Part shown: in pieces, positions 18,753-54,990 of the stretch
Numbering within the stretch: position 1 is the first letter of the stretch
Layout of the letters: every line of letters begins with the position of its first letter
Origin: an archaeon
GTDB lineage: Archaea > Nanobdellota > Nanobdellia > Woesearchaeales > SM23-78
Assembly: GCA_043801165.1 (NCBI GenBank)
Contig: JAZDMG010000007.1
Location: 6,155 to 70,154, forward strand
Direction: 5' to 3'
Length of the DNA: 64,000 nucleotides
Position numbers and translations under genes: made by a program
Notes under the pieces: generated by a model
What the model was told of the DNA's origin: nothing
What the model saw: the letters and a program-made list of their open reading frames with translations, nothing else
Database searches by the model: none

Positions 18753-18753
18753 A

Positions 18754-27700: not shown

Positions 27701-30700
27701 TGAGAGTCAACTGCACCACAAGCTACATGCCCATATGGAACGTCACAATCAACTTCACCAACACGCCAGATTCGACGCTCTTCTTCACCAACACCACCAA
27801 CATCAGCTCTGGCGGGTGGTGGACGGTATACAGGAATGTCACCATCAATGACTCAGGCGAGTTCGTCGTCGGAGTGACTTGCACCAACAATGAATCTGCG
27901 AAGGACACAGAGGCTGTGAACTGGACTGTGCCCTGGGGAAAGATAACCCTAACATTGATTAATCCTAATAGCGACGGCTATGTGGAATATGAGCGGTTCT
28001 TCAACTTCACAGCCCAGGTGAACTGCATCCTGGGCGAGTGCGGAGACATCAATGCCATGCTTGACCCTGAGACTGAAGAGACCAAGCAGCACATAGCATC
28101 TTTCCTGCCGACCAAGTACGAGATTAGAAAATCGGTCGCTGCTTTCCCAGAGCAATCGCCAGGCACAGAAACACCAAGCATGGAAACGAAAACAATGGCT
28201 TCTGCTGCCTATGCGGCCTATGCTACCTATGATGCTTCTGCTGGTGCAAAGACCGGCAATGGAGGGAACAGGGCGTATCCTGACGGTATGGTTACCATCA
28301 ACTCCATGAGGCCGAGCTATGACATCGGAGAGGCTGCTGAGCTGGTCGGGACAGTGCTTGACAGCAGGGGCAATTTTGTGCCGAGCGCTGACCTCCGCAT
28401 GATAATAACAAGCCCGAGCTCCCAGAGAAGCATCTTCACCTCATCTGACCTGAAGGAGCTGGCGCCGGGCCTCTACGAATTAACATATGACCTGTCCCGC
28501 GAATCAGGCATCGAGCCAGGCATCTATTCTGTCGAGTTCATCTCTGCAGGAGAGATTAAGGACAGCATGGGCACTGCCTTTGAGGTGAAGAACATCAAGG
28601 ATTGTTCAGGATTCGAGATAACTAGGGATGCTCCTTTCGCAGTCAATCCCTGGGCTGGAGCCGATGGTCCTTTCGACATCTCAATCACAGCGGCAAGGCG
28701 CGACAGTGCATTGCCTGAGAGGTTCACATTAACAGAGACAGTGCCGCTCGCGCTTGATATCATCGATTCAGGAGGAGCAGACCATTGGATCTCGGAGCAG
28801 GAGCAAAAGCAGTATCTGATATGGTCAGGCCTGGGCGACAACTCAAGGGTGAGCTATCGCGTGTCTGCTCCAAAGATATCCCCTGAACGTTATGGACTCA
28901 GGGCAGCCATCTCTGCAGGAGGAAAAACATTCAAGGAGCCAAGGAGCTGGTTCATCGCAGTTGATCCTGCCAGCTATTATTCTGCAAGCAATGACACTGT
29001 AGAATATTATATCTCAGCAGGGACCTATACCGGAGCTGATGGGGGAAGCTATGCGAACACCGCGGCAAAGGATTGTTCTGGCGGAACCTGCACACAATCA
29101 AACGCATGGGTGACTGGCTTCATCAACATGAACACGATAGATGTGACCTGCCGCCTTAATACATCTCTCATGTTCAACATCAGCAACATAAAATCTGAAT
29201 ACATAAATAACATCACCGTCAGCTGGGGCGGATGCTGGCACGGCGACCAGGTGCTGACCAACGACAGGTGTGACAACCTGACAAGGCCTGAGTTCAGCTC
29301 AGGGACAGGAGGCGGGACATTCGACATGTGGATGCAGCATAACACAACATTCGAGAGCATGAGCTGCATCGACACCGCAGGAGGTGAGTGCGGATCAGCT
29401 GATGAGATAAGCCTGGGGACAGCCACCACATCGCCTGCATGGGGGAACGCCCATGGATACAACACATTCACCTTCAGGAAGGCAGACCTTGACAGCAGCT
29501 ATGTGAACAATAGCATCATCACATTGCTCTGGAGGACCTGGGGAGCAGGAGTATGCGCCAATGCAGCCAATGATGAGGTGCTCTTCGCGCTTGATTACGC
29601 AAACCTGACGGTCAACTGGAACTACCTGATAAAGAACGGGTCGATGGTCTCCATAGTGGAAGGGTCTGATCCATTCTACACGGTCGATGCCAACCCGATG
29701 AACAAGACCAACAACAGCTGCCTCTCGGCGATGAGAGTAGGCGGTGGCGGCTGCAATGTCACATGGCGTGTGAACGCTACCGGAGGAATAAACACCACCC
29801 ACATATTCTATGTCATAGCGAACACCTCGGTGTATCCGACAACTGTGATGCCGAATGAGAGCATCCATATAATGCTTACCATAAGGGACACCTCAAAGCT
29901 TCCACCGACAGTCACCCTCAATTCGCCTGAGAATAATTTCGCCACCACCAACACGACAGTCATCTTCAACTGCTCGGCCACGGATAACAGCGGCCTGACC
30001 AACATGACCCTCTACATAAACGTAAGCGGAAGCTTTGAAGAGAACGGGACCAACGACATCGGAGGGGTGAGCAACAGCACGCTCTTCAACAGGACCTATT
30101 TCGAAGGAAGGTTCCTGTGGAACTGCAAGGCCATGGACATCGACAGCAATGAGCGGTTCGCCACCACCAACAGGACTCTCATAATAGACCATACCAGCCC
30201 CTACATAGTGCTGTCTTCTCCCCAGGATTCGGATAATTTCAGCAGCTCGAACGTAACATTCAGGTTCACTGTCTTCGACAATGTGGCCATGACCCTCAAC
30301 TGCAACATAACGATAGATGACTCTGTGCGCGACCTGAACTTCACAGTATATGCCGAAAGCCCGAACGCTCGGAACATATTCAACATATCGCAGGGAGATC
30401 ACTTCTGGAACGTCTCGTGCGCTGACAATGCCGGCAACTGGAACATCAGCGAGACAAGGAACTTCACCTTGCTCAACACCCCCCCGACAGTCGTCCTCCA
30501 GACAATGGATGGCTACACCACAAACTCAGGAGATGTGGAGCTGTTCTATCTTCCAAGCGACAACTCAAATATTGTGCTGGCAGACCTCTACATCAACGGG
30601 AGCTGGTACAGGAATGAGACCGTAGTGGATAATGGGATCACCAACTCATTCAGCCTATTCGGATTCAGCGAAGGAAGATACAATTGGACTGTGAATGTGA

Positions 30701-33700
30701 CCGATGACGGAGGATTCACCGCCCAGGCTCCTGCGAAATGGTTCATCATCGACAAGACTGGGCCTTCCATCAACCTGGCCTATCCTGATGACAATTACTC
30801 GACAAATTCAAGTTCGGCAGTGATAAACTTCACGGTCATCGATAACTATGACCAGACGCTCATCTGCATTATAATCGTGAACGGGACCAATGCCACCTCC
30901 TATTTCAGCGCCGGCAATAACACTCCCATATCAAAGACTGTCTACGGCCTGAAGGACGGGCTGAATTACTGGAATGTCAGCTGCACAGATGATGCTACCA
31001 ACACCAATGTAAGCGAGACCAGGCGCATCAATGTCAGCGCTCCCCCGACGGTGGTGCTTAACACTCCGGCAGACAACTACTCACAGGCCAGCGGCAACAT
31101 AAGCCTGAACTACACCCCGGCAGACAACGTGGGCCTGCTCAACTGCACCCTCATCCTGAACGGGCAGAGGAATCAGACCAACAGCACCATCAACAACACC
31201 GTGCAGAACCGCTTCTTCCTGACAAGCTTGCCATCAAGCGACTACAACTGGAGCATAAATTGCACTGACACTGCAGGGCTGGTTGGATACTCGACAACCA
31301 GGATATTCAGGATAGACTCAACAGCGCCCACCATCACCCTCAACCGGCCACAGAACAACGATACCGTATACGGAGGGTTCGCAATATTCAACTGGACAGC
31401 CTATGACAACCTAGACCCGGTGCTCATGTGTAATCTCACTCTCGACGGCGCATTGAATAAGACCAACATCCCGTCACCAAACGGGCAGTCGGTGAATGTC
31501 ACTGTCCTGATACCGAATGAGACCTCGCACCTATGGAACGTCACATGTGCAGATGACTCTGGCAACAGGAACACCAGCGAGATGTGGAACTTCAGCAGCG
31601 TAAATGCTCCTACGGTCACGCTCATATTCCCGAAAGCCAACGAGATACTCAACTTCTCACAGAACATAAATTTCACATACATACCTGGAAGCAGCAACTC
31701 GCTCTCGATAGCAAGACTTTTCCTGAACGGTAATCTAAACCAAACAACACCCAACCCAAACAGAAGCGTTGAGAACTATTTCTTCCTAAATCTCTCTGAC
31801 GGAATATACAATTGGAGCGTCAGCATAACAGACAACATGAGCCTCAACGGCTCAAGCGAGACAAGGTTCTTCAGGGTGGACTCTACTCCTCCGATCGTCA
31901 CCGTGATAACCCCATACCAAGGGCAGACCGTGAATGACAACGATGTCACATTCTCATTCAACGTGACAGACAACCTGGGAGGCTATGTCAACTGCACCAT
32001 ATATTTCGGAGGGGAGCCTGAGTGGAGCAACATCAGCACCTCGAGTGGCAGCACAATCACAAGGTACAAGACATTATTCGACGGAAGCTACAATTGGAGT
32101 GTCAACTGCACAGACGTGGCGAACAACACAAACGCATACCAGCTGATAAATTTCACCGTCGATGCGCCGCCCAACGTCACCATCAACTTCCCGCCGCCCA
32201 ACTACAGGACCAGGGACACCAACATATCATTCAACTACACCCCGCTGGACCCCATAGGATTCAACAACTGCTCGCTCTACATAAACGGCTCATGGATCCA
32301 GAACTCCAGCAACGTGGCAAGAAACGTCCCCAACTTCCTGAACACCACAGGACTGAACGAAGGAGCCTATATCTGGAACATAGAATGCTTTGACCAAGAG
32401 CCAGACTTTAACAACTACACGACCCCTCCACGCAACTTCACCATTGACCTGACAGGACCTAACATGTCGTTGCTGTATCCTGGGGCAGGAGACTACCTCA
32501 ACAGCAACACAGTGCAGTTCAACTGGACAGCGACTGATTATGCAGGAGTCAGCCTGAACTGCTCGCTGTTCATAAATGAAACATTCAACAGGTCATTGGC
32601 GCAGCAGTCAGGCAGCTATTTCACACCGACGGTCAACAACATGTCTGACGGGTCATATGATTGGTATGTGAACTGCAGCGATGACCTAAACAACTCAGCA
32701 TTGAGCGAGACAAGGGTTTTCACCATCAACAAAGCAGACCTTTACATAAATGACAGCAGGATAACATTCAACAACACCAACCCAGATGTCAACCAGACAA
32801 TAAACATAACCGCCAACGTGAGCAACATAGGAGGAATGCCAGCCTATAACGTCGTAGTCAGCTTCTGGGATGGCGATCCTGGCAGCGGAGGGACATGGAT
32901 AGGGAACAGCACTGCCACTGTCAACTACGCCAGCTCAGCAAGGTTCTCTGTGCTGTGGAACATCAGCGGAGCCATGCATACCATCTATGCCATAGCAGAT
33001 CCGGGAAGCCTCATTGCAGAGCTTGATGAGAGCAACAACAACGCAACAACAACGATATCTCCTCTGTACTCAACAATAACATATCCTGCTCAGAACATGA
33101 CATTCAATAGCAACAACGTGACTGTGAATTTCACGGTCTATGACTACAACGGCAGCACCCTCAGCTACACCCTATTCGCCAACGGGACAACCGTCGGGAG
33201 CGGATCAACGACAGATGGAGAACCACAATCTGTGCCTGTGACCATCAACGACGGGACCTGGATAATAAAAGTCGGAGTGACTGATGCGCTCGGAAGGAAG
33301 AAGAACAGCACAGGAGTCACGATATATGTAGACGGCACACCCCCATCCATAAGCTATTTCACGCCACCGACACCAATCAATAACTGGGTGCAGAGCAACA
33401 CAACGGTCACAATCAATGTCTCACACTATGATGTGCATCCTAATCAGATAATATTATACTGGCAGGGAGCAGCCAATGAAACCAGGACATATACAGGCAG
33501 CTTCTCAAACTTCACATTGTCAGGACTGACTGACGGGATATACAACTACTATGTCTGGCTCAACGATACCTACGGGCTATCAAACCAGACAGCAACACAG
33601 ATCGTCAGGATAGACCTATCAAATCCGGTGATAAATCTTGAGGCCCCAGCACCAGGAGCCACTGTCAACTCATCAGTGGTTGAGTTCGACTTCAATGTGA

Positions 33701-36700
33701 CCGACTCAAGCCAGTACGTCAACTGCTCGCTTTACATAAACGGAACTTTGAACAAGAGCAGGAGCAACCTCCTCACCAACACCCAGCAGTTCATAGTGCA
33801 GCAATTCAATGAGGGCACATATACATGGTCCATCAACTGCACAGACCAGCTTGGCAGGAGCAACATCTCTGACACCATATCTTTCACAGTGCCGACATTC
33901 AACCCTAACTGGACCAATAGGTGGTATGAGCAGTACAACACCAATGTCCTTAACACCACTGCGATGATCAACCTCATGCCTAGCAGGGACGGCGGAGAGA
34001 ACAGGGTCAACATATCTATACCAGCAGACTCATTGTACACCATGGCCATCGCATACTCTCCATACATCGCAGGCTATGGAGCGACTGTCCCTAACGGGAC
34101 CAATGTCAGCTTCAGCGGCCTCTTCAGCGTAGTGGATGTGAACGATATCATCGCAGGCTATGTTACCTGGAAGGTCTATCTCAGCAATGAATCAGGAGAT
34201 TTCCTGATAGCGCAGGTGGGAAATGATGACAACACAAACACAGGAGGGAACAAGCTTGATGCCAAGGACACAAGGATACTCCTCGGGGTAAGCATGATAA
34301 CCAACAGGAGCTGGTTATTCACTCCGACTGACCGTGTGAAGCTGGTGGTGAACATGTACAGCGACGACCGTGTAGTTGAGAGATATATCCACTACTGGGA
34401 TAATAGGGTAGAATCATGGGTCGACTTCAGCAATTTCTCAGTGATCGGAGCCATGAGCCTCAACATGACTGAACCGTCAACAGACATCACAGTGGCTCCT
34501 GACGAGACATTCAACCAGACATGCCTGGTCAACTGCACCTACGGGACATGCATCAACGTCTATGTATACGCGCAGAACAATGCGACCCTGCCGAATGAGA
34601 CTGGATGGAGCAACATGACCAACTCATCAGGGAACATCAGGCTGGCCGCAGGGCAGAGCAATGGCGTGTTCCTGAGCAATATCACAGGGCTCTCATACGT
34701 CAATTTCACCCTTAACGGCAGCGTAGCCTCGATAGATAATGTGAGGTGTTATGCAAAGAGCGACTACAACGATGCATATAGCATGTCCAGGCAGGTGAGC
34801 GTGGCAGACCTGATCCCTCCGAACGTGACTCTCACCAGCCCAAGGAACAGCACCTACTGGAACGCGGTCAACATGACATTCTATTTCAACACCACTGAGA
34901 ATGTTCAGCTCAGGAACTGCACCCTGCTGATAGATGGGAACGAGGTGACTACCAAGAACACCAGCGGCCTGGTGAGGATTGGAAGCAACAATCTCACAGC
35001 GATCGGCCTGGCTGAAGGATTATATAACTGGAGCGTCATATGCTCCGACATCAGCGGCAGCCAGGGCAACTCATCTGTGTGGTGGATAGGGATCGATAGG
35101 ACTGCGCCAGAGATAACGCTCAACTATCCTGCACCAGGGGACAACTTCCCAAACACGACAGTGATACTCAACTTCACGGCGACAGACAGCCTTGACCAAT
35201 CGCTGACCTGCAACCTGACATTGGATGGGAGCATCAACAGGAGCAACTTCGAAGCGCAGAACGGCACATGGACCAATGTGACAGTCTCTGGCTTGACTGA
35301 AGGGGCACACAGCTGGAATGTGACCTGCTGGGACAACGCAAGCAACACCAACACCAGCGAGACAAGGAGCTTCAGCACATTCATCTCTCCGAGATTGACC
35401 CTTGTCAGCCCATTGAACAACAGCATCAGCAACAACGCGACGCAGATGTTCCTCTTCAACGTCAGCGATGACACAGGGCTCACCAACTGCTCATTGCTGC
35501 TCAATGGCGTGGCCAACACAACCAAGACGACAGCTGATCTCACCAACAACGCCACCAACAACTTCACAGCGACAGGCATGAACGGGACCTATCTCTGGGC
35601 AGTCACATGCTTCGACAATACAACCCTGACGATGTCAAACACGACAGCACCATGGAACCTGACCATAGACCTTGAGCCGCCGATGCCAATAATAACAACA
35701 CCAAGCCTGAGCTGGTTCAACACAAGCTCTCCGACGATACAGTTCAACATAACAGACAATGTCGCCTACTCGATAAACTACACATTCTTTGTCAACGGTA
35801 CAGTGAACACCAATGGCTCGATGAACAACAACACCCCATCATCGGCGATATTGACAGGGCTGGTCCCTGATGGAGAATATGCCATCATGCTCCAGGCAGT
35901 TGACAGGGCCGGCAACATAGCCAACAGCACGACGATAACCATATACGTGGACACGGCCAAGCCAGGCATCAACCTGTCCTCTCCTGAAAACGGGCTGGAG
36001 ATCGACAGCACCAGCGTGAGATTCAATTTCACAGCCACAGACAACATGGCGAGCTACATGATGTGCAACCTGACTGTCAGTAACGGCATCAGGGAGGATA
36101 ACATCAATGCCAGCAGCGGAGCCCTGCAGAGCATATTCAAGAGCGGGTTCCTCTCAGGGACATACTTCTGGAATGTCAGCTGCATAGACCTAGCCAGGAA
36201 CAGGAACACAAGCGTGACCTGGAACTTCACCATCAACTCGCCAGACCTTATCATAAATTCAGGGAATATCTCGTTCAATGAGAGCACGACCGAGGAAGGA
36301 AAGAACATAACCATCTTCGCCAACGTGTATAACCAGGGAGGAACGCCTGCCTATAACGTGACTGTGCAGTTCTGGAGAGGGGATCCTGACGCGGGAGGGA
36401 CGCAGATCAACGGCAACAGGAGCGTCTCAATAATAAACGCGAATGATAATATCACCTTGAACATCACCTACCTGACGATCATAGGCAACAACAACATCTT
36501 TGTCGTGGTGGACCCGCCGACAGCCACCAACGGGTCGATTGTCGAGGAGGATGAGAGCAACAACAAGGCGAACAACTCATTGAGGGTTTCACTTTACCAT
36601 GTGTTCGCTGGCAACACGACAGGGATGATAAGGATCGAGAAGCAGAGCATAAACAACAGCCTGTACATCTGGAATGTCAGCAATTATACCGGGAGCAACA

Positions 36701-37149
36701 TATACGTGACAGACCTCGAGGCCAGCCCTAACTTCCTGAGGCTCCAGGCCATGGGAACCAACACAAGCAACACCTCAACCACAGGAGATTTCGCTGACAT
36801 CGACACAAAGCTCGGCACCACCAATTTCACTGACTCGATAAATATCACATACACAAGTAACGGAGCACCAAGGGCGACCAAAGCATTCACTGTGTTCAGC
36901 AAGACAATAAGCGATGTGCCGATAATAAACAGCACCAACAGCAGCACTTTCCAGACAGGGATCCTCTGGGACACCAACGATGGTGGAGTAGAATACAATG
37001 GGACCCAGGACATCATATTCATAACAGAGACAAACCAACAGCAGGAAGGGCTAAACGGAGTATATGACTTCGAGATAAAAGTGCCTGCCTTGCTCAGGAA
37101 CTACAACGCAGGAGGATCAAGCGTAGCATTTTACGCTGAGCTCAAATGA
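18754..37149 (+). CDS. Giant (6131 aa) mosaic extracellular protein / adhesin
   Basis: Uninterrupted 18,396-nt ORF; all antisense ORFs are short. N-terminal hydrophobic segment MLFTAICIMLFLLSSAPLLG. Internally repeated domains, detailed in the findings: MG/Ig-like modules, triple HxH repeat, four Cys-rich super-repeats, two DUF2341-like domains, a LamG-like and a MAM-like jelly roll, a Gly-rich beta-helix-like region, at least 18 tandem ~95-aa Ig-like repeats, and two CARDB-like domains. Extreme N-x-S/T density. Confidence 0.9.
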   Translation: MKRAKASRKAKNKMRAWPERRATVATARPMLFTAICIMLFLLSSAPLLGENPPTEKRLYLSVEKPSFSIGESIMLIITGDSLSDYEMVLSSASTNYKYNGELKNNIAFYPREAGVHRAELISKLTKQPIDSLEFMVGSSAASESQANTSDQDQTSNPSGTASESGESEPSGSPVIVLNKQRYLLGEQVNVSIRIALEEQQDYRLYYEYEGLSQRYMGDFSAISFAPLGIGTHHLVLKSSDNAIIAQSSFEVSEAIASIKNDIKDEKDNASAKIQGDEAFLKRVLNVRDSSGTKETFYVSMIRKAPAESPIEPTTKKTGLSGNGTDLTNSTRNNSIDQNTTAAYDLYDLELTITGKAVSRITLNNLRLSNDSNISMGIDDVPLEKASSAKMRAVKAFAIDPSHLDFTDGSATLIATGRELWKCKDWSFDSQSCAGSWSKVMELTPGQEYSIALSPEDPGYAETGVASINTRKSTYHPGESAEIIIVVLDNQGRLTSDASVELAITLPDNQSNLFSTSAGTLSSEQKGIFTATFDQTGKEGDYIMVVNALGANVNSTMISSFTVSSYYEFDIIRDAPVVIDPWQGPFTSRIRLISFVANSSNQSFDLVEVMPASFNITDSGGGTESIANNTKQLRWYGLTNDSEVSYSVQAPLVTPELYNLGQSMVIYDAIGSNGTNGSSATFTEARPWYLAADPAFVGSFFMLWDNTSNAPSGWTCVSCVAGDPFYSRLIRGDPSYGSTGGQTGHSHTIAYQSETLGDPIIYASSGGTSGGARASGGHTHEGIDATTTGTASNFPSFRQLKVIAYTNGLPSAIPTGAIGIFNTTSLPADWTRYSAEDGYFILGNGTSNVTGGSNNHSHSISITTSTSSGTSTARTGGTQLPVGASGHTHTATGNTNTTENIPLYVDVILAKATTNTAIPYGQGFIGMFNSSVGDGWVNMSQSGQPFYHMMIRANNVSGATGGNNQSTHANTTVTTGAPGTGNTRSGSGRNFSDPSHTHEIGISFNTTSHLPSYINVVFGYANSTPPSVPTINTTQCYSPGFGWINCTTLAFNSNFTSVRTRCTSNNGVLINNVSFIFINQEDNKTFFNVTTTDNSTGYWTYDIDDILIQDSGSMNLSVICRDSMESNQTISWSIPWGTLSSSLINPTSNRNVSQNKFFNFTARIACSGGECGYIKATLDPETMWWNRSWKNRKQVYINTTNLLPARYTVETNMSTTGNGFLSNNNDVRVVYWNGTANIEIDRHILNNNTANATIFFAIQSNISAGTTNNTAYYIYYNNSAASTPPKNLSRILVYAADFESGTESWTVAGQSYTWERASDLLGASVTGCRGSDCDEPARAISGDYAWGTNIGGIYPNDASTWGYVQSTAMDLSAYAAENLTLSYFKAWQLEGASYDYARIRISNSSAFTTATTIETFNPATGCDATCPYYDWSTTKANVSAYDTNLYIRFEMQTDTGWQWTGLYFDFITVRINTSSAPAVGIGAAQSEIKGAVPVGSGTPFYTTNANPMYAVDNDCLGNMMPGSSCNTTWMVNATGNINSTWTFFATYESENYSSYVSQSATSSINITILDMVPPSISNIQCYKIGTGWTACSNILFNSNLTDIRAQCSSGEGANITNVTFTLSNKDDNKTIFDVVTTDNSTGYWYYNLTDTIIQDSGDMNLSVTCTDADGGVGVSKVDWSIPWGTLSAFLINPTTNINVTRNRFFNFTAKINCSDGECGSINASALRNTSIFGSGKDGALTVSAANSIINNYTYLTANASNGTTVISVNSAAELSVGDEILIIQMQNFSGGTAGVYEFATIISISSNNLTLNSSIQNTYRIGTLNTTNATATQVVRVPQYSNLTINTGASVTAPAWNGYRGGIVAFKATGIVNVSGIINTSNLGYKGGLGIAASGGPQYAYQGESFNGLGSAANAANLGGGGGGYNDLGGGGLSGASGGGGGYASVGDAGDTSPEGQSGGSGGITYGNSQLSQLHLGSGGAGGGSDNNGAIDGTDGTRGGGIIFIKANSLIVSGAIESDGQESTGASNQWAGSGGAGSGGSVYLSSNSMSIGSSLVSSTGGIGGCGDTGRCGGDGGNGRIRLDFIGISGSPASSAAYNGTLNETIFLLISTASGDTPLFTNAANPMYATNNSCLGNMIAGRSCNTTWSINATGETYSSWMIFASYSSLNLSWLKVNTSRVNITIIPNLAPSVTSVVIVPDRPRFDQDLNCTFTVSDPNLEDSLSANVSWFRDGALVSSALVSVTQNVSKVETLGYGNLTAGEVWWCGITPSDGLLSGNQVNSSNVTILASMPPDVSNIECQRNRAIWVSCPSMAFNQNITAVRAICSDTDGYVVNATFSLSNIEDSKTFFTDTTTDNSSGYFTLDNPDITITDSGIFNLSVSCMDNNDTEGYGNSTWLVPWGTLIASLVDPSADANVTRNRFFNFTAMINCSGGECGYINATLDPTNWWNSSWGYRITIALSEMANRNLSLYQFKVNISTQALIGAGKMNADCSDIRFISNTSKQLDYWIESGCNTTGTIIWVVNNLSAKANTTMNMYYGNPDAGAQSNATKTMFLYEDMSSAPGGSLTGNATYIDATWGVRLTVAANDLLGYLYYIKNPGVGFYGYYETWAGGGSGADATWIGVHDNSASSAREDVVDGGYHFTVDEYGTNGNNGRIAFTKSTVDNGAPIASWTNNNLDDSAWHTLEVYFYNNGTTANAELYYDGVLRVNGTDSSPQSTSGNYMSFAGRTGGETNQHYIRKIIIRKYVDPEPTVTLGDEVQQTKGIIPMGNGTPFYTITANPMYAANNSCLGNMNMASENSCNTTWEVNATGNTGIPWEFFVTYSSLNYSSYVTINITRRINITIVNNTAPRVSAILLTPEYPLPTEDLNCTFTVSDSNLGDSLSANITWYLNNTAYSSVNLSVGNGVSQSVILGFGNISLGQIWHCGATPSDGEVFGAQVNSSNVTVVLSKPPVINQVQCYINGSTWTNCSKLSFKSNLSGVRVNCTTSYMPIWNVTINFTNTPDSTLFFTNTTNISSGGWWTVYRNVTINDSGEFVVGVTCTNNESAKDTEAVNWTVPWGKITLTLINPNSDGYVEYERFFNFTAQVNCILGECGDINAMLDPETEETKQHIASFLPTKYEIRKSVAAFPEQSPGTETPSMETKTMASAAYAAYATYDASAGAKTGNGGNRAYPDGMVTINSMRPSYDIGEAAELVGTVLDSRGNFVPSADLRMIITSPSSQRSIFTSSDLKELAPGLYELTYDLSRESGIEPGIYSVEFISAGEIKDSMGTAFEVKNIKDCSGFEITRDAPFAVNPWAGADGPFDISITAARRDSALPERFTLTETVPLALDIIDSGGADHWISEQEQKQYLIWSGLGDNSRVSYRVSAPKISPERYGLRAAISAGGKTFKEPRSWFIAVDPASYYSASNDTVEYYISAGTYTGADGGSYANTAAKDCSGGTCTQSNAWVTGFINMNTIDVTCRLNTSLMFNISNIKSEYINNITVSWGGCWHGDQVLTNDRCDNLTRPEFSSGTGGGTFDMWMQHNTTFESMSCIDTAGGECGSADEISLGTATTSPAWGNAHGYNTFTFRKADLDSSYVNNSIITLLWRTWGAGVCANAANDEVLFALDYANLTVNWNYLIKNGSMVSIVEGSDPFYTVDANPMNKTNNSCLSAMRVGGGGCNVTWRVNATGGINTTHIFYVIANTSVYPTTVMPNESIHIMLTIRDTSKLPPTVTLNSPENNFATTNTTVIFNCSATDNSGLTNMTLYINVSGSFEENGTNDIGGVSNSTLFNRTYFEGRFLWNCKAMDIDSNERFATTNRTLIIDHTSPYIVLSSPQDSDNFSSSNVTFRFTVFDNVAMTLNCNITIDDSVRDLNFTVYAESPNARNIFNISQGDHFWNVSCADNAGNWNISETRNFTLLNTPPTVVLQTMDGYTTNSGDVELFYLPSDNSNIVLADLYINGSWYRNETVVDNGITNSFSLFGFSEGRYNWTVNVTDDGGFTAQAPAKWFIIDKTGPSINLAYPDDNYSTNSSSAVINFTVIDNYDQTLICIIIVNGTNATSYFSAGNNTPISKTVYGLKDGLNYWNVSCTDDATNTNVSETRRINVSAPPTVVLNTPADNYSQASGNISLNYTPADNVGLLNCTLILNGQRNQTNSTINNTVQNRFFLTSLPSSDYNWSINCTDTAGLVGYSTTRIFRIDSTAPTITLNRPQNNDTVYGGFAIFNWTAYDNLDPVLMCNLTLDGALNKTNIPSPNGQSVNVTVLIPNETSHLWNVTCADDSGNRNTSEMWNFSSVNAPTVTLIFPKANEILNFSQNINFTYIPGSSNSLSIARLFLNGNLNQTTPNPNRSVENYFFLNLSDGIYNWSVSITDNMSLNGSSETRFFRVDSTPPIVTVITPYQGQTVNDNDVTFSFNVTDNLGGYVNCTIYFGGEPEWSNISTSSGSTITRYKTLFDGSYNWSVNCTDVANNTNAYQLINFTVDAPPNVTINFPPPNYRTRDTNISFNYTPLDPIGFNNCSLYINGSWIQNSSNVARNVPNFLNTTGLNEGAYIWNIECFDQEPDFNNYTTPPRNFTIDLTGPNMSLLYPGAGDYLNSNTVQFNWTATDYAGVSLNCSLFINETFNRSLAQQSGSYFTPTVNNMSDGSYDWYVNCSDDLNNSALSETRVFTINKADLYINDSRITFNNTNPDVNQTINITANVSNIGGMPAYNVVVSFWDGDPGSGGTWIGNSTATVNYASSARFSVLWNISGAMHTIYAIADPGSLIAELDESNNNATTTISPLYSTITYPAQNMTFNSNNVTVNFTVYDYNGSTLSYTLFANGTTVGSGSTTDGEPQSVPVTINDGTWIIKVGVTDALGRKKNSTGVTIYVDGTPPSISYFTPPTPINNWVQSNTTVTINVSHYDVHPNQIILYWQGAANETRTYTGSFSNFTLSGLTDGIYNYYVWLNDTYGLSNQTATQIVRIDLSNPVINLEAPAPGATVNSSVVEFDFNVTDSSQYVNCSLYINGTLNKSRSNLLTNTQQFIVQQFNEGTYTWSINCTDQLGRSNISDTISFTVPTFNPNWTNRWYEQYNTNVLNTTAMINLMPSRDGGENRVNISIPADSLYTMAIAYSPYIAGYGATVPNGTNVSFSGLFSVVDVNDIIAGYVTWKVYLSNESGDFLIAQVGNDDNTNTGGNKLDAKDTRILLGVSMITNRSWLFTPTDRVKLVVNMYSDDRVVERYIHYWDNRVESWVDFSNFSVIGAMSLNMTEPSTDITVAPDETFNQTCLVNCTYGTCINVYVYAQNNATLPNETGWSNMTNSSGNIRLAAGQSNGVFLSNITGLSYVNFTLNGSVASIDNVRCYAKSDYNDAYSMSRQVSVADLIPPNVTLTSPRNSTYWNAVNMTFYFNTTENVQLRNCTLLIDGNEVTTKNTSGLVRIGSNNLTAIGLAEGLYNWSVICSDISGSQGNSSVWWIGIDRTAPEITLNYPAPGDNFPNTTVILNFTATDSLDQSLTCNLTLDGSINRSNFEAQNGTWTNVTVSGLTEGAHSWNVTCWDNASNTNTSETRSFSTFISPRLTLVSPLNNSISNNATQMFLFNVSDDTGLTNCSLLLNGVANTTKTTADLTNNATNNFTATGMNGTYLWAVTCFDNTTLTMSNTTAPWNLTIDLEPPMPIITTPSLSWFNTSSPTIQFNITDNVAYSINYTFFVNGTVNTNGSMNNNTPSSAILTGLVPDGEYAIMLQAVDRAGNIANSTTITIYVDTAKPGINLSSPENGLEIDSTSVRFNFTATDNMASYMMCNLTVSNGIREDNINASSGALQSIFKSGFLSGTYFWNVSCIDLARNRNTSVTWNFTINSPDLIINSGNISFNESTTEEGKNITIFANVYNQGGTPAYNVTVQFWRGDPDAGGTQINGNRSVSIINANDNITLNITYLTIIGNNNIFVVVDPPTATNGSIVEEDESNNKANNSLRVSLYHVFAGNTTGMIRIEKQSINNSLYIWNVSNYTGSNIYVTDLEASPNFLRLQAMGTNTSNTSTTGDFADIDTKLGTTNFTDSINITYTSNGAPRATKAFTVFSKTISDVPIINSTNSSTFQTGILWDTNDGGVEYNGTQDIIFITETNQQQEGLNGVYDFEIKVPALLRNYNAGGSSVAFYAELK

Positions 37150-37197: not shown

Positions 37198-40100
37198 ATG
37201 AACAAAAAAAAGAGGTGTTGTCTGAGAATCATAATGTTGATAGCCTTAGCTCTCAGCATGCTCCTCATCAGCGCCAACAAAGCAAAAGCAGAGGCTGGCG
37301 GATGCGACACAGAGAACTACTTCTGCGCCTGCGGAGACAGATGCCACGGGCCATATGAATCAAGCACAGGGTTCAACATACTGAACACCACTGTATGCCA
37401 AGACGGACCAGACCAGTCAGAGTACGAGTATGTCCAGGAGATCACTGCCACAGACCTCAACGGAACCAATTTCAAGGGAGGGGATGTTATCAGAGTGTAC
37501 GCACAGTTCTATTGCTATGCAGGGGATTACATCTCCATAGCCTACTCAAACACATCAATAGTCTCAGGCAGCAGCTGGAGAAATATCTACTCATCAACAT
37601 GCCCTGGCTACAACTTCATAGACGTCTACTATAACCTGACCCTTGACAGGAAAGAAGGATACCATGCATTGAGGGCGATAATCGCCTATCCTGGAGAGCC
37701 AAGCATGACCTGCGGCTATCCATCGCACACATCATCAGACACAGATGACCTATATTTCAAGGTGAACGCAAGGCCTGACATAGATGCTCCTGCCATAACA
37801 GGCATCTATCCATCGGCAGGGGCCAACTTCGAATACACCGAAGGGCTATCAATCCCGCTCGTGGTCAATGCCACTGATGAAACTGGGATAGACAACATAT
37901 CAATAAACATGACCTGGGCTAGCGGCAGCATGTCATTCACGCTCACGAACTCTTCAGCGACAAGGTTCAACACGACACTATACAACCTGACCAATGCTAG
38001 CAGGTACAACGTGACAATAATAAGCAGGGACGACCTTAACAACACAGGCACAAACACAACATACTTCTTCATCACCAACAACGCGTTCCTGAACATAACA
38101 TCACCAGCTTTCGGGCTCACATATAGCTACCACGAGGTACCGCTGAGGTTCAAGATAAACGACAATAACACCCCTTACCAAGAGGTGTACTACAACCTCA
38201 ACTCAGCAGGCAACAGCTACCTCAACGAGACCACCAGGATATCGAACGATGAGTCTGTAGGAGAGGCAGAGACCAACATGCTGGCCAATATCTCACAGCT
38301 GTTCGTGCCGCAAGAGGACATGACAGTCAACAACATAAGCATCAGGATCGGGAGAGAAAGCTCCAACTCATTCCTGAACTATATCCAAATCAGAAATGGC
38401 ACCAACCAGAGCGACGGAACAGTGCTGCTAGAATACCTGCTGAACTCCTCGACAGTCCCTGACTCAGGCGCCGACTGGATCAGCATCAACTTCAGCAGCA
38501 GCGCGATACTGCTCAACGGCACAAAGTACTTCATATTATTGACAGGCTCAGCAGATGCGAATGACTATTACTCATGGGAGTTCAACTGGGACGCATATCC
38601 TCATGGAAACTTCACAGGCAACAGCACAGAGGACCTTCTTTTCATGGTGCATGACAGGTTCAAGTACAATACCACCATGACCGCGGCTGAAGGGACAAAT
38701 TCCCTGAGCGTCTGCGAGAAGAACAAGATCAATCTCACCGACTGCACAATGACTGTCTTCGAGACAGACACAATCCCTCCTAGCTACACCCAGCCTGAGG
38801 AGACAGCAGACCCGTTCGAATTCGGCGACTCAAGCTATCAGTTCATCTACATAAACGTCAGCGATGAGACCAGCACCATCAGCAGGGCCGTCATAAACAT
38901 CAGCGGAAACCTGACCCAGATGAACTATTCAGGAGTCGGGGGGCGCTACCAGTACCGATGGTATATCAACAGCAGCAACCTCAGCATGATAAGGAGCTTC
39001 AACTACAGCATATTCGTCAACGACAGCGTAGGCAACTACAACATCACTCCAGGATATTCATTCTCTGTCGTCGATTCGCTGCCGCCAAATGTCTCAGCGA
39101 CTAACTACAGCCCAAATTATGAGAGCCTTCTCGACCCGAACGTGACTATCATGATCAATGCGACGGTGACAGACTACACAAGAGTGCAGAACGTCACCCT
39201 GTTATACGGGTTCATCAATACCACTTCGGGGATTATAGAATGGAGCAGCGCCGTGATGCTTAACAACACAGGGGTCAGCTCAAGGTACGTGGCCAACTTC
39301 ACCCCGACCATAGAAGGGAACTGGTCGTTCATGATATCATCTAGGGACATCTACAACAACAGCATGAACACGACCCAGACCAACATAAGCATAGCATACG
39401 ACACGAGCTGGTTCGCGGACCCTGATGAGTTCGAAGAGAAATTCTCGACGGCAGCAAACCATGTCGAGATTGGGAACATAACCATCAACAACACAGGGGA
39501 CTACGAGCTGAGCTTCTTCCTATCAAAGCTCTCTGGGCTGCTGACCATCTTCATCAATGAGACCAACATATCGGTGCCTGGAGGGCAGGCCAAGATAGTG
39601 AACGTCTCAGCCTTGGCGCCTGCAGACCAGAACCAATACCCGTTCACGCTCCTGGTGAGCTGTGTCAACATATCATCAACACCCAACGACACTGTCGATG
39701 GCATAGTGACCGTAGGCCAGGGCGGGCCATACATCACCCTCACAGAGATATTATACCCGACGACAGCTGTGCAGGGCCAGAGGAAGCTGACACTCAACAC
39801 CACTGTGAAGAACATAGGGAATGACACTGCATATAACATAACAGTGAACTGGACCCTGCCCCCTGGCTGGACAACAACATACAACCTAAGCAAGTCAATA
39901 GCCAGCCTCCTACCTTACCAGAGCTCAAGCGCGCTGGAGAGCCACGGGATACAGACATCTGTGGGGCTGAACGCCACCATAGGGATGCAGAACTTCACGC
40001 TAACAGTTGACTTTGTCATGGAGCCGAACAGGACAAGGCCTGCTCCGATAATCAAGACTGTCGAGGTGACTGAGCTTGAGACAGGGACGACCAACGAGAC

Positions 40101-41478
40101 AGTCATAATAACTCCTCCCTCAAGTGGAGGCGGGGGCGGAGGAGGAGGCAGGACCAGCGGCTCAGGCGGAGGAATGATACCTCGGACGCTCAACTACAAC
40201 CTAACCATCTGGCACCTTCCAAGGACAGGAATCATGAGAGGACAACACGACACTGTGCAGATAAACATCACCAACAATAACGACGTGACATTCTATAACA
40301 TCAAGATGAGCATAGACGGGTTCCCTTCCTCACGCTATAAAATAATTCCCGACAGGATATCTGAGCTTGGACGCAACCAGACAGCACAGCTCAATGTCAC
40401 ATTTGAGATACCATTGTACATGGGATATTCTGTGAACAGCCTGATGTTAATCTTCGACGGAGAATCAAGGGCAAAACCAAACTCATCAGCCAATGCATAT
40501 CACCAAGAAAGCGCTTTCACGCTGATAATATCTGAGACAGACCAATCAGGCTCATTGGCCTGCCTGACTGAGTCTGAGAGCCTCATCGCCGAGATGGAGC
40601 GCATGAACTTCACCGTGACAAAGGTGCGAGAGCTGCTGGCAAAGGCAAGGGATGCATTCGACAGCATAGACTACACCCAAGTGAAGATTCTCTGCGACGA
40701 GATCAAGAGCAGCAAAGAAGCTGCCTTCTCACTTGACAAGAAGATAAAAGAGCTTGAGAAAGAGATCAAGGATGCGGCTTCTCAGGGATACGACATGAAA
40801 GGGACAGCCAGGCTCCTCGGCCTTGCCAAGGAAGTGTTCCAGAATGGAGAGTATGATCAGGTGAGCCCAAGGCTCGACAAGGCCCAGGAATCACTGGCGC
40901 TCCAGGTGCAGACAGAGGATGCCAAGCTAGGCAAGCGGCTCTTCAAGCTGGTGAAGAACTACTGGTGGGCTCTGCTCATGGCCGCCATCGCAGGCACCAT
41001 CATCGCAGGAGCGGCCTACAGGAAAGCCTCCATAATCAAGATAAAGAACACAATCGATAGGCTCGAAAAAGAAGATGTCGCCATCACAGAGCTGATCAAG
41101 CAGCTCCAGCAGGAGCACTTCGTCGACAAGAAGACAAGCACTCACATGTATAACAACAGGCTTGAGGACTACCAGCGACGTCTGGCTGAAATCGCGAAAG
41201 AGAAGATAGACCTAAAGCACATCCAGGTGAGATTCTTCAAGGTATCGATGAGCAGAGAAGGGCTTGAGGTGCAGAAGGAAGAGATGGCATCGCTGATAAA
41301 GGCATTGCAGCAGGATTATTTCGTGAACAGCACCATAGACAAGAACAACTATGACAAGACCTTCGCGATCTACAAGAAGCAACTGGCAGAGATTAACAAA
41401 AGGCTCATACTCCAGGAGCATGAAGAGAAAGAGAAGAACAAGGAGAGACTGAAGAATATAGAAAGGATGAATAAATGA
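37198..41478 (+). CDS. Bitopic surface protein (1426 aa), paralogue of 59696-63586
   Basis: Signal/anchor helix, Cys-rich N-domain, and CARDB/NEW3-like domain (TVKNIGNDTAYNITVNWTLPPGW). Poly-Gly linker at nt ~40126-40150, helical stalk, and TM helix at ~40960-41020. Cytoplasmic coiled coil carries two LQxxYF motifs (~41091-41130 and ~41293-41330). Confidence 0.85.
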   Translation: MNKKKRCCLRIIMLIALALSMLLISANKAKAEAGGCDTENYFCACGDRCHGPYESSTGFNILNTTVCQDGPDQSEYEYVQEITATDLNGTNFKGGDVIRVYAQFYCYAGDYISIAYSNTSIVSGSSWRNIYSSTCPGYNFIDVYYNLTLDRKEGYHALRAIIAYPGEPSMTCGYPSHTSSDTDDLYFKVNARPDIDAPAITGIYPSAGANFEYTEGLSIPLVVNATDETGIDNISINMTWASGSMSFTLTNSSATRFNTTLYNLTNASRYNVTIISRDDLNNTGTNTTYFFITNNAFLNITSPAFGLTYSYHEVPLRFKINDNNTPYQEVYYNLNSAGNSYLNETTRISNDESVGEAETNMLANISQLFVPQEDMTVNNISIRIGRESSNSFLNYIQIRNGTNQSDGTVLLEYLLNSSTVPDSGADWISINFSSSAILLNGTKYFILLTGSADANDYYSWEFNWDAYPHGNFTGNSTEDLLFMVHDRFKYNTTMTAAEGTNSLSVCEKNKINLTDCTMTVFETDTIPPSYTQPEETADPFEFGDSSYQFIYINVSDETSTISRAVINISGNLTQMNYSGVGGRYQYRWYINSSNLSMIRSFNYSIFVNDSVGNYNITPGYSFSVVDSLPPNVSATNYSPNYESLLDPNVTIMINATVTDYTRVQNVTLLYGFINTTSGIIEWSSAVMLNNTGVSSRYVANFTPTIEGNWSFMISSRDIYNNSMNTTQTNISIAYDTSWFADPDEFEEKFSTAANHVEIGNITINNTGDYELSFFLSKLSGLLTIFINETNISVPGGQAKIVNVSALAPADQNQYPFTLLVSCVNISSTPNDTVDGIVTVGQGGPYITLTEILYPTTAVQGQRKLTLNTTVKNIGNDTAYNITVNWTLPPGWTTTYNLSKSIASLLPYQSSSALESHGIQTSVGLNATIGMQNFTLTVDFVMEPNRTRPAPIIKTVEVTELETGTTNETVIITPPSSGGGGGGGGRTSGSGGGMIPRTLNYNLTIWHLPRTGIMRGQHDTVQINITNNNDVTFYNIKMSIDGFPSSRYKIIPDRISELGRNQTAQLNVTFEIPLYMGYSVNSLMLIFDGESRAKPNSSANAYHQESAFTLIISETDQSGSLACLTESESLIAEMERMNFTVTKVRELLAKARDAFDSIDYTQVKILCDEIKSSKEAAFSLDKKIKELEKEIKDAASQGYDMKGTARLLGLAKEVFQNGEYDQVSPRLDKAQESLALQVQTEDAKLGKRLFKLVKNYWWALLMAAIAGTIIAGAAYRKASIIKIKNTIDRLEKEDVAITELIKQLQQEHFVDKKTSTHMYNNRLEDYQRRLAEIAKEKIDLKHIQVRFFKVSMSREGLEVQKEEMASLIKALQQDYFVNSTIDKNNYDKTFAIYKKQLAEINKRLILQEHEEKEKNKERLKNIERMNK

Positions 41479-50341: not shown

Positions 50342-50968
50342 ATGGATAATCTCACCGATCTGAGCGACTTCGAGCTGGATGCACTCAAAGAAACCGCAAA
50401 CATAGGCACAGGGCACGCTTCAATAGCGCTCTCTGCGCTGATGAACAGGAAAGTGAACATCAACATCCCCCAGACCAACGTGGTCTCTGTGCACGAAGTA
50501 TACGCCCGGATAGCCAGCGCGAATGAGACATTAGTCGGCATCTACAGCAAGGTCAAGGAAGGGATGAGCGGGAACGTCGTGATGCTGCTGCCCATAGACT
50601 GCGCATTCAAGCTGATAAACCACCTCAACCCAGCAGAAGGCGGCCTGCAGAAAGATTCTCTCAAGGACAAGGACATCATAATATTGAAAAAACTCGGCTC
50701 AGTGCTGTACTCAGCATACCTGAGCGCACTGGCGAACTTCTTCGAGCAGAACATAATATTCCAGACCCCAAGCGTGGTATCCACTCTAGGGGATTCAATA
50801 ATAGATTTCATACTGGTGCAGATAGGAGAGAAGGAGAAGGTGTTGCTGATAACGATAAACTTTGATGTGGAAGGGACAGACATCGACGGCAATTTCGTAC
50901 TGCTTTTCACGCTGAACTCGCTCTCCCCGCTGCTGCAGAGGCTCAAGACCAAGATGGGGATGGCCTGA
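50342..50968 (+). CDS. cheC: CheC-family phosphatase (copy 2)
   Basis: ELDALKETANIGTGHASIALS plus a second, degenerate motif KKLGSVLYSAYLSALA. The ATG at 50342 follows the cheW stop (ORF open from 50279). Confidence 0.8.
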   Translation: MDNLTDLSDFELDALKETANIGTGHASIALSALMNRKVNINIPQTNVVSVHEVYARIASANETLVGIYSKVKEGMSGNVVMLLPIDCAFKLINHLNPAEGGLQKDSLKDKDIIILKKLGSVLYSAYLSALANFFEQNIIFQTPSVVSTLGDSIIDFILVQIGEKEKVLLITINFDVEGTDIDGNFVLLFTLNSLSPLLQRLKTKMGMA

Positions 50969-51510
50969 TGAACGTCGACATCAACGAAGAGTTCAAGACC
51001 AACAAGACCATTCTCATCGTCATACCGATAAAGGAGTATTCTGAGACCATGATGAACCTGAATGGCCAGCTCAACAGCTCATTCAACAGGATAACCTACG
51101 TAAGCCTGAACAAGCTGATAACCCCGCTGAGGAGAAGCTTCGAGGAAAACCACCTTGATCTCAGCAAGTTCTATTTCGTCGACGCCATAACCAAGACAGC
51201 CATCCCAAATCCTCCTGAGATCATCAACTGCGCATACGTGCCGGCGCCGAACGACCTCACCAAGCTGAGCATCCAGATAACCAAGTCGCTCCAGACATTC
51301 GACCCCGACTGCATAATCTTCGACAGCCTGTCGACGCTGCTGATCTACGAGGACAACACCATAACGAGCCAGTTCGTCCATGCCCTGGTGAACAAGGCAA
51401 ACGCCTTTGGCGTCAGGATAATCTTCACCTGTCTCAAGGGCGACAAGGAGAAGCAGCTGGCGAGGGAGATGAGCCTGATACTCGATAAGGTTATTGGGAT
51501 AGACGAGTGA
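50968..51510 (+). CDS. Degenerate KaiC/RecA-like protein lacking a P-loop; last gene of the che operon
   Basis: 180 aa; its start overlaps the cheC2 stop. It aligns by eye with the KaiC-like domains of 55037-57004 and 58563-59657: NKTILIV vs NSTILVS, PDCIIFDSLSTL vs PDRIVVDSLSAI, GVRIIFTC vs GATSFLIS. The GxxGxGKT site is replaced by IPIKEYSE. Confidence 0.6.
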   Translation: MNVDINEEFKTNKTILIVIPIKEYSETMMNLNGQLNSSFNRITYVSLNKLITPLRRSFEENHLDLSKFYFVDAITKTAIPNPPEIINCAYVPAPNDLTKLSIQITKSLQTFDPDCIIFDSLSTLLIYEDNTITSQFVHALVNKANAFGVRIIFTCLKGDKEKQLAREMSLILDKVIGIDE

Positions 51511-53390: not shown

Positions 53391-53666
53391 TCTATAAAAT
53401 TTTCTATTTATAAGAATTCTCTGAAGCGTTAACTAAGATTGGCTTCGTCTTCAAGGCATTAAAATCGTTTCCTCAATTCTTATTCTTGATTGCTTACTTT
53501 GTTCGCTCGAATGAACGTCTCTTAAAATTACTCTTCGGATTCTGCTGAATCATCGCACCTCGTTCACTCCAGCTCTCAGAACACTTTCGTTCTTGAGGTC
53601 GCTCATGAGACTCAGAGAGCCTAAGAAGTCTTAGGTGAAATATTACTCAGAAGAAATCACCTTGAA

Positions 53667-54188
53667 CTACAACATTACGTTCGTAAATTTATGTTTTCCA
53701 CATTCATACTCATCATCTGCAAAGAATAAATAAATTCCATTTCTTTTAGGTTTAGGACAATTCTTAGCTAAATACTTTGTACACATTCCATTCAATTTAT
53801 CTTTATCAAGATTAGAAGATGTAAAAGTTATCAAAATTCTAATATCGGCTTTAATCTTGGCTCTTATCAGATTATCTAGTGATTTATATAAAGCATACTT
53901 ACCATTGTTTTTACGAAGGGGTCTATTTTCGTGCTCTATTTCAATTAACTTTTTGTTTCCATTTTTAGAGTACAAAGTCATATCAGAATAGCCGCCTCTC
54001 CCGGTTGGATTCTCTGGGCGCACAGTCATCTTATCTCGTTTGGCGATATTATAAATCGCAACATCAAATAATAGGGTATAGGTGCCATTTTCCAACCTAT
54101 CAACATCTTCCAAACCTATAAATACTCCTTCTTCTAAGAGCAAATCAATTTCTTTTGTAAATTCATTAAAAAAGGTGTTTATATTCAC
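53667..54188 (-). CDS. Hypothetical protein of the AT-rich island
   Basis: 173-aa AT-rich ORF. Weak nuclease-like D...EIEHE pattern only. Confidence 0.5.
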   Translation of the reverse strand: MNINTFFNEFTKEIDLLLEEGVFIGLEDVDRLENGTYTLLFDVAIYNIAKRDKMTVRPENPTGRGGYSDMTLYSKNGNKKLIEIEHENRPLRKNNGKYALYKSLDNLIRAKIKADIRILITFTSSNLDKDKLNGMCTKYLAKNCPKPKRNGIYLFFADDEYECGKHKFTNVML

Positions 54189-54474: not shown

Positions 54475-54990
54475 ATGGCTTCAGAGCAGAGCAGCATAAT
54501 AGGCGTACTTTCTAAGGGCTTCAATAGGGAGCTGACTATCAACCAGCTGTCCAAATCGATAAAGAAATCTTATGCCTTCACCAACCAGCACGCTCACGCG
54601 CTAATGAAAAGCAATATCCTCAACAGGAAGGCTGTCGGCAGCGCGATCCTCTGCCTTCTCAACCTCAAGAACGAGGAGACCATAGCTCATCTCGTGTTCA
54701 ATTCCATGGGCGAGAAAAAGCGATTCTTGGATTCCCTGCCAGAGCAGAAGAGAACAGCCATCAATGATCTCCTATCAAAGCTTGAAGACAGGTGCATCTT
54801 CCTTGAAAAGAACAAGCTGACAATAATCTCTGAGAGCAAGGAGCCCCTGGCAGCAAAGCTACCAGGCTTCAGCATCAGCACGATCACAAAGCCAGAATTC
54901 GAGCGAAAGGCAAAGAGCATCGATTTCGAAGCATTGGTCATACTCGCGAATCACGAGCAGTTTTGGAAGACAATAGGCAAAGCTGCATAA
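54475..54990 (+). CDS. Winged-helix-like regulator, paralogue of 18159-18752
   Basis: 171 aa. See the alignment given for 18159-18752. First gene of the second surface/ATPase cluster. Confidence 0.6.
   Translation: MASEQSSIIGVLSKGFNRELTINQLSKSIKKSYAFTNQHAHALMKSNILNRKAVGSAILCLLNLKNEETIAHLVFNSMGEKKRFLDSLPEQKRTAINDLLSKLEDRCIFLEKNKLTIISESKEPLAAKLPGFSISTITKPEFERKAKSIDFEALVILANHEQFWKTIGKAA

Follow-up and report, generated by a model that had tools for sequence, protein, structure and literature searches.

A two-hairpin cytoplasmic tail family on large surface proteins of DPANN archaea and its genomic coupling to one subfamily of KaiC-like ATPases

DPANN archaea spend their lives attached to other cells, presumably by means of their giant surface proteins. 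How might such proteins be connected to the cytoplasm of the cell that makes them? This question is raised by a stretch of 64,000 nucleotides (nt) from a genome of the order Woesearchaeales (contig JAZDMG010000007.1 of assembly GCA_043801165.1, positions 6,155 to 70,154; hereafter the window), in which two large and two small bitopic surface proteins share a cytoplasmic L-Q-x-x-Y-F motif behind their membrane helix. A preliminary description, made from the sequence of the window alone, took this motif as a sign of a common cytoplasmic partner, and named the co-encoded ATPases with an NDFxxWI module as the obvious candidates. We found that the motif belongs to a helical-hairpin tail domain, and that genomes have acquired or lost this domain along with a particular subfamily of single-domain KaiC-like ATPases, the genes of the two being nearly always neighbours.

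The two large proteins, of 1426 and 1296 amino acids (aa; labelled P0001 and P0002, respectively; Table 1), are collinear paralogs, as had been described. They align by BLASTP in two consecutive segments, residues 2-494 of the former to 10-514 of the latter (33% identity, E 5e-61) and residues 585-1409 to 507-1296 (25% identity, E 4e-62), and each has a NEW3/NPCBM_assoc match in Pfam (E 1.7e-7 and 4.3e-10), a poly-Gly linker, one C-terminal transmembrane (TM) helix and two copies of the motif. The 1426-aa protein starts with a signal-like N-terminus, followed by a Cys-containing N-domain, beta-rich domains, the NEW3 domain, the poly-Gly linker, a helical stalk, the TM helix and two tail hairpins. 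The 497-aa small partner consists of a signal-like N-terminus, an all-helical ectodomain stalk, one TM helix and one tail hairpin; its residues 237-473 align to residues 1134-1353 of the 1426-aa protein (BLASTP E 1e-15), so that stalk, TM helix and tail are common to both. The gene starting at 63610 encodes 476 aa in full and ends 1,040 nt past the window; its product, which has one tail hairpin, at aa 416-463, is paralogous to the 497-aa protein (E 6e-11). The resemblance of both small proteins had been recognized in the preliminary description, whose coordinates of open reading frames (ORFs) and quoted peptide strings were likewise all recovered. The ectodomains are rich in N-glycosylation sequons, at about three times the expectation: NxS/T occurs 72, 51 and 10 times in the 1426-, 1296- and 497-aa proteins, against about 23, 20 and 4 expected.

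A hidden Markov model (HMM) built from the five motif copies in the window was searched against the full 1.44-Mb assembly (6,674 ORFs). It matched the four tail proteins alone, with the next best E value at 0.67, and the sixth copy, which is that of the 476-aa protein and lay outside the training set, was recovered at E 1e-5. Other coiled-coil proteins of the genome were unmatched; the motif is thus specific, unlike a generic coiled coil. The conserved unit is about 46 residues long, with the consensus ..L.k.LQ..YF..K.I....Y......y..RL.eI, and its 38 copies from this and related genomes align gap-free, the Q being invariant and the Y near-invariant. In the AlphaFold2 (AF2) model of the TM-plus-tail region (mean predicted local distance difference test score, pLDDT, 84.8), four helices span residues 12-65, 71-102, 109-132 and 138-181. 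The TM helix runs on unbroken into the long helix of hairpin 1, which ends at 'YF'; after a five-residue loop, the second helix starts from a conserved D/S/T-x-x-x-Y, and the arrangement then repeats. The L-Q-x-x-Y-F motif proposed earlier is real, but the 'coiled-coil tail' in which it was placed is modelled as two helix-loop-helix hairpins. Each large protein carries two hairpins (four helices) and each small protein one; the invariant Q and conserved aromatics are located at the hairpin turn throughout the class.

In a survey of 94 family members, the first hairpin starts 15-28 residues (median 19) past the TM helix in about 88, and the two hairpin copies lie about 68 aa apart. All small proteins of this survey share one layout, in which a signal-like N-terminus is followed by a helical ectodomain, a single TM helix and a single hairpin. 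The tails of 28 large proteins from across the class align almost gap-free over 165 columns, with a basic linker, 'LRxKRIxxLK', joining the two hairpins, and the tail domain as a whole is basic (mean net charge +8). Isolated tails compared with Pfam and NCBIfam yielded no fitting family, even at E <= 10.

The distribution of the family was followed in the 61 closest genomes, in 401 genomes from the phylum and, with a two-hairpin profile, in 1.84 billion representative proteins. Tail profile matches are present in 15 of the 61 closest genomes, 11 of them robust, and in 69 of the 401 genomes of the phylum sample, all of one class. With the two-hairpin profile, 720 cluster representatives were matched at E <= 1e-3, of which 269 also at E <= 1e-10; almost every match spans the full domain, and most are C-terminal in proteins of 1000-4283 aa. 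The members that were looked up by name are annotated 'hypothetical protein' or 'Ig-like domain repeat protein' and come from Candidatus Woesearchaeota or Nanoarchaeia, with one from Aenigmarchaeota. The four window proteins belong to one unannotated surface-protein anchor family, which has no counterpart among curated families and whose named members are from DPANN archaea; a conserved anchor cassette is thereby defined. At a typical locus, the gene for a sequon-rich, adhesin-like protein of 835 to >6,000 aa comes first and that for its small all-helical partner second, and the two often overlap by 4 nt. A locus search with a closer tail alignment gave two loci in metagenome-assembled genomes (MAGs) of Candidatus Woesearchaeota, one of the same genus as the window, and a word-based homolog search with the 497-aa protein's tail gave one relative only.

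Some loci depart from this layout. Genomes G044 and G026 have a conserved 267-aa gene between the small and large tail genes (L033 8270-9073 and L034 8663-9466); their 'large' genes are short (563 and 957 aa), with long low-complexity cytoplasmic extensions past the hairpins. A close homolog of the 1426-aa protein in G014 (L032 7614-11084), encoded beside a HerA-like ATPase, has only 1156 aa and no tail match, and may be truncated or frameshifted.

Two KaiC-like ATPases are encoded next to tail genes in the window. The gene for the 364-aa ATPase, with the Walker A motif GGPGTGKT, lies directly upstream of that for the 1296-aa protein, while the stop codon of the 655-aa ATPase gene overlaps the GTG start of the 497-aa protein gene (GTGA), and these two genes appear from the sequence to be translationally coupled. 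Both KaiC domains are intact, with Pfam KaiC matches at E 3e-47 and 1.4e-48, Walker A motifs GGPGTGKT and GGPGSGKT, and LTFEE. The genome has six KaiC-like genes, and only these two belong to the subfamily in question. Among the 61 relatives, with the subfamily called at E <= 1e-40, all 11 genomes with robust tails have it, always on the contig of the tail genes, and none of the other 50 does. Across the 401 genomes, 58 have both tail and subfamily, 11 the tail only, 5 the subfamily only and 327 neither, which corresponds to an odds ratio of 345. The subfamily gene is on a contig with a listed tail match in 48 of 60 cases and within 10 kb of it in 46 of 60, at a median distance of 2.1 kb; in the loci examined, the close relative of the 364-aa ATPase is usually one or two genes away from the tail genes. 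Given this coupling, the earlier proposal of the co-encoded ATPases as partner of the tails survives for one KaiC-like subfamily, but not for the NDFxxWI module as the specific counterpart. The near-perfect co-occurrence makes this subfamily a concrete candidate for the cytoplasmic partner, and suggests a previously undescribed link between cell surface and cytoplasm.

Pfam matches (PF19027) identified the NDFxxWI module as one repeat unit of DUF5752. The AF2 model of the unit (pLDDT 90) has as its top Foldseek match 4CSO, OrfY of Thermoproteus tenax, with a template-modelling score (TM-score) of 0.73-0.77; a literature search found no paper naming DUF5752. The fold is like that of OrfY, here with single units on flexible linkers of ATPases or large proteins, but the module is specific neither to the tail motif nor to the tail system. 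DUF5752 is present in 50 of the 61 relatives, tail-bearing or not, so its genome-level co-occurrence with tails is uninformative. Most tail-linked KaiCs in other lineages are without the unit, their N-termini being instead short and basic, or made up of another conserved peptide or a helix-turn-helix-like stretch; some have almost no N-terminal extension, with total lengths of 259-300 aa. The unit is on the KaiC N-terminus in the window's genus and in G216, whereas G040, G283, G101 and G089 have it C-terminally on the large protein, past both hairpins, and the KaiC there is without it. Since DUF5752 moves between the neighbouring KaiC and large protein, we read the two as parts of one complex: the migration suggests that KaiC and the tail end are together in a complex, not that DUF5752 recognizes the tail motif. 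The membrane HerA-like ATPase of the window also carries DUF5752 units, so the module is common to several cytoplasmic parts of the cluster.

Two further observations concern these N-termini and units. The DUF5752-less KaiC N-termini were seen at loci L034, L035, L036, L047, L051, L055, L061 and L074; many of them have another common peptide, about 'IKxEIxxxLKxGKIxxHExQIxEQRxPV', and some a fused helix-turn-helix-like stretch. Elsewhere in the window's genome (C31:84881-95456), the gene behind a second giant ORF (3165 aa) encodes a coiled-coil protein of 333 aa with a DUF5752 unit at its end, so that the NDFxxWI module is a mark of other giant-protein loci too, ones without the tail motif.

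Is the tail domain related to any known domain? The 28-sequence tail profile, searched against all PDB sequences, had its top match in 8WHN, the cytosolic domain of OST1 (ribophorin I) of the archaeon MK-D1, at E 0.0014 and with both hairpins spanned. A Foldseek search with the AF2 tail model also placed 8WHN at the top (prob 0.99, E 0.12, 22% identity), with poor superposition (TM-scores 0.33/0.42, root-mean-square deviation 14.6). The real 8WHN fragment scored 22.7 bits with the profile, compared with at most 13.8 bits for 2,000 shuffled versions and 0.0 for the reversed sequence. We collected C-terminal fragments of Asgard OST1, several longer ones of which carry PF04597; hhalign scored the tails against them at 88.2% (6 sequences) and 86.1% (29 non-redundant sequences) over 114-116 columns, and against reversed and column-shuffled templates at 0.2% and at most 1.3%, respectively. 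When 57 OST1 fragments were added to the 6,674 ORFs of the genome, the tail HMM placed the four tail proteins at ranks 1-4 and OST1 fragments at all of ranks 5-45 (E 7e-7 to 0.016), with no decoy among them.

The two domains are also alike in layout. Each comes behind the only TM helix of a type-I membrane protein whose ectodomain is beta-rich, and each is a basic domain of about 120-140 residues with four helices arranged as two similar hairpins. The hairpin spacing is 71 residues in OST1 versus 67-70 in the tails, the net charge +9 to +11 versus +8, and the linker from TM helix to domain about 29 aa versus 15-28 aa. A basic inter-hairpin linker containing 'FKRVL' was counted as a common feature, and the turn signature 'RYKRGKLPSKAAY' of OST1 stands against 'QxxYFxxKxIxxxxY' of the tails. 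Counted against homology are the identity of 22-24% and the weakness of single-sequence and reverse profile searches: phmmer with the 8WHN fragment gave no significant match in the genome proteome, and the OST1 profile did not rank the tails first in their own proteome and was weakly enriched for them among the locus ORFs. On these sequence comparisons, we consider the two-hairpin tail domain probably homologous to the OST1/ribophorin I cytosolic domain, a connection that is new here. As no PF04597 (Ribophorin_I luminal) match was found in the 1426-aa and 1296-aa proteins, P0003, ten family members or the 61 relatives, the tail proteins are not OST1 orthologs and have only the tail domain in common with it. 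They further differ from OST1 in that both adhesin-like giants and small helical partners bear the tails, the latter with half a domain, and in the coupling to a KaiC-like ATPase, of which none was seen beside the one OST1 gene whose neighbour was read (L078).

The OST1 cytosolic domain is a four-helix bundle that pulled down ribosomes in vitro, both from MK-D1 and from human, and has been reported so far from eukaryotes, Asgard and TACK archaea (PMC11417166). The probable homology connects the tail with the only known ribosome-contacting part of OST1/ribophorin I. Should it hold, a domain that figures in discussions of how the eukaryotic translocon arose would be more widely distributed, and binding to ribosomes and to KaiC could be tested directly on a small soluble domain. 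Among the collected Asgard fragments, P0168, P0170 and P0189 include some named 'DNA-binding transcriptional MerR regulator' or 'YdiU' at their source, which are probably misannotations of the helical domain; fragments of TM helix and cytosolic domain alone have no Pfam entry. With the shorter 46-residue motif profile, PDB sequences gave the Vps4 MIT helix and CdvA, both insignificant, and weak CdvA-like signals in further searches (Foldseek, family members) were taken as generic helical similarity because they are far weaker than the OST1 signal.

What, then, would the tails do? The reading we find best, with slightly better than even confidence, is a platform that docks the KaiC-like ATPase. 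In this putative model, the large and small proteins would pair via their homologous stalks and TM helices, and three hairpins, two from the large and one from the small protein, would form a basic membrane-proximal platform. The platform would dock the KaiC-like ATPase, by analogy with the crenarchaeal archaellum, in which ArlX holds ArlH. Amid DUF7504 pseudo-KaiC, receiver and winged helix-turn-helix (wHTH)-like proteins and DUF5752 adaptors, the ATPase might then let the state of the adhesin act on gene expression or motility; in the alternative direction, it would act from inside to outside and control the adhesin. ArlX is a single-TM protein whose cytosolic helical domain binds the KaiC-like single-RecA-domain ATPase ArlH (PMC8978795). 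It differs from the tail proteins in its N-terminal TM helix, the lack of a large ectodomain and the position of its gene in the arl operon. The window ATPases are far below the NCBIfam cut-off for ArlH (43.6 and 50.7 versus 215 bits), and no archaellum family is among the Pfam and NCBIfam matches of the cluster proteins scanned. A docked ATPase would also be reminiscent of the 'signal transduction hubs' that Makarova, Galperin and Koonin, in mBio in 2017, reportedly saw in archaeal KaiC-like ATPases. Likewise, the ATPase here is a single-domain KaiC-like protein in a conserved neighbourhood with inactivated KaiC-like, receiver and DNA-binding-like proteins as putative input and output, with the difference that the input would be an OST1-like tail on giant surface proteins.

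Several points weigh against the docking platform. Eleven tail-positive genomes are without the KaiC subfamily at threshold and five show the reverse, most of them being fragmented MAGs or weak matches. Genes of the 1426-aa type usually lie 3' of a giant-protein gene, not of a KaiC gene. The Fisher p of 2e-52 for the 401 genomes is indicative only, as it overstates independence given that the genomes are related, and gene linkage without contact could arise from co-regulation. In addition, the OST1 domain, to which the tail is probably homologous, is a binder of ribosomes rather than of ATPases (PMC11417166).

This last point leads to the main rival, which we regard as unlikely: the basic two-hairpin domain would bind ribosomes at the membrane, as OST1/ribophorin I does, and the anchors would mark or organize sites of synthesis, export and N-glycosylation of giant glycoproteins, with KaiC either regulating this process or unrelated to the tail. 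The first rank of 8WHN in both the profile and Foldseek searches, the hhalign and spike-in results with their controls, the OST1-like position behind the TM helix, copy spacing and net charge, and the pull-down of ribosomes by the OST1 domain all favour it, and the sequon-rich ectodomains fit. However, the homology is remote by identity, reverse search and TM-score, the Ribophorin_I luminal domain is lacking, AglB/STT3 is on another contig and not linked to the cluster, and the loci are without Sec, signal recognition particle or ribosomal genes. Moreover, the tail is at the C-terminus and is therefore translated last, too late to help the export of its own protein in cis, and the near-obligate linkage to KaiC is left unexplained. 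In a broader version, the OST1 ribosome-binding domain would be part of a family of juxtamembrane tails that is older and more widespread among archaea, and whose DPANN members either recruit ribosomes to export sites or dock KaiC, a possibility that we put forward tentatively and do not expect to hold; if it is true and the tails dock KaiC, eukaryotes would later have turned a signalling or anchoring domain to ribosome docking.

Still less probable, in our view, is a purely structural anchor, in which the hairpins oligomerize the large and small subunits and hold the stalk in the membrane, with KaiC co-regulated but making no contact with the tail. The homologous stalk, TM helix and hairpins of large and small proteins, their adjacent or overlapping genes, the strictly conserved domain length and the common tendency of helical hairpins to bundle are all consistent with such a role. 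Yet the invariant Q and aromatics kept at the turn across the class exceed the needs of packing, the KaiC subfamily is never found without tails in the 61 relatives, and the DUF5752 unit shifts between KaiC and the tail end. The partner named in the preliminary description, an NDFxxWI (DUF5752) module of the ATPases that reads the L-Q-x-x-Y-F motif, is largely contradicted and very improbable: all three window ATPases carry the module with all tails nearby, and its fusion behind the tails in some lineages means that it works in the same place, but it is a general OrfY fold found in many other contexts, occurs in 50 relatives versus 11-15 with tails, is absent from most tail-linked KaiCs and sits at times on the large protein itself. 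The reading of the motif as generic coiled coil or as an artefact of composition, which K/E-rich helical tails and high HMMER bias terms might suggest, is refuted by the silence of every other ORF of the genome, coiled-coil proteins included, by the ungapped alignment with its invariant Q, by the fixed post-TM position and by the number of matches at E <= 1e-10 among the representative proteins.

Table 1. Coordinates of tail proteins, ATPases and neighbouring genes in the window
Position	Strand	Feature	Basis
11921-15877	+	Membrane HerA-like ATPase, 1318 aa, two C-terminal DUF5752 units	Pfam
18159-37149	+	197-aa protein (18159-18752; wHTH-read paralog of 54475-54990) and 6131-aa giant surface protein, the giant directly upstream of the 1426-aa protein	
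37198-41478	+	Large bitopic surface protein, 1426 aa	ORF, Pfam, BLASTP, hydropathy, sequon count
40960-41016	+	TM helix of 1426-aa protein, aa 1255-1273	Hydropathy scan
41068-41214	+	Tail hairpin 1 of 1426-aa protein, aa 1291-1339	HMM alignment; AF2 helix-loop-helix
41272-41415	+	Tail hairpin 2 of 1426-aa protein, aa 1359-1406	HMM alignment; AF2
50968-51510	+	P-loop-less KaiC-like protein, Pfam DUF7504	Pfam
54475-54990	+	171-aa protein heading the unit of 655-aa KaiC and 497-aa protein; paralog of 18159-18752	Read as wHTH from sequence; no Pfam match
55037-57004	+	KaiC-like ATPase, 655 aa; three DUF5752 units, KaiC domain aa 406-655	Pfam, motifs
57001-58494	+	Small partner, 497 aa	HMM, hydropathy, BLASTP
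58102-58158	+	TM helix of 497-aa protein, aa 368-386	Hydropathy scan
58219-58365	+	Tail hairpin of 497-aa protein, aa 407-455	HMM alignment
58563-59657	+	KaiC-like ATPase, 364 aa; DUF5752/OrfY unit aa 15-87, single KaiC domain	Pfam, motifs
59696-63586	+	Paralogous large bitopic surface protein, 1296 aa, architecture as 1426-aa protein	Pfam, BLASTP, sequon count
63131-63187	+	TM helix of 1296-aa protein, aa 1146-1164	Hydropathy scan
63233-63376	+	Tail hairpin 1 of 1296-aa protein, aa 1180-1227	HMM alignment
63434-63574	+	Tail hairpin 2 of 1296-aa protein, aa 1247-1293	HMM alignment
63610-64000	+	Second small partner, 5' part only in the window	HMM; BLASTP

Besides the ATPases, the genes around the tails show recurrent company: DUF7504 proteins, receiver domains of about 120 aa, and small paralogous proteins that read as wHTH and have no Pfam match. 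Four of the five genomic DUF7504 paralogs are within this cluster, and their homologs recur beside the tail genes of other genomes. The order of a giant-protein gene followed by a gene of the 1426-aa type is kept in G012, G213 and G283.

The cluster was also read past the end of the window (C31:71271-78274), where two clear DUF7504 paralogs (71271-71798 and 72690-73229) come directly after the 476-aa small protein. An ORF at 71597-72394, overlapping the first of these, matches the family as well, and a 128-aa response-regulator receiver is next; the opposite strand encodes a 1360-aa multi-TM protein that, from its sequence, reads like a sensor histidine kinase. Within the window, an AT-rich island on the minus strand (51675-54188; fraction of G and C 0.28 versus about 0.47 around it) separates the che operon from the second tail cluster, and holds ORFs of 571 and 173 aa without Pfam match. 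At the left edge of the window (358-2615), where the fraction of G and C is lower (0.38), an AAA_14/DUF4143 ATPase gene on the minus strand adjoins an rve-type integrase gene.

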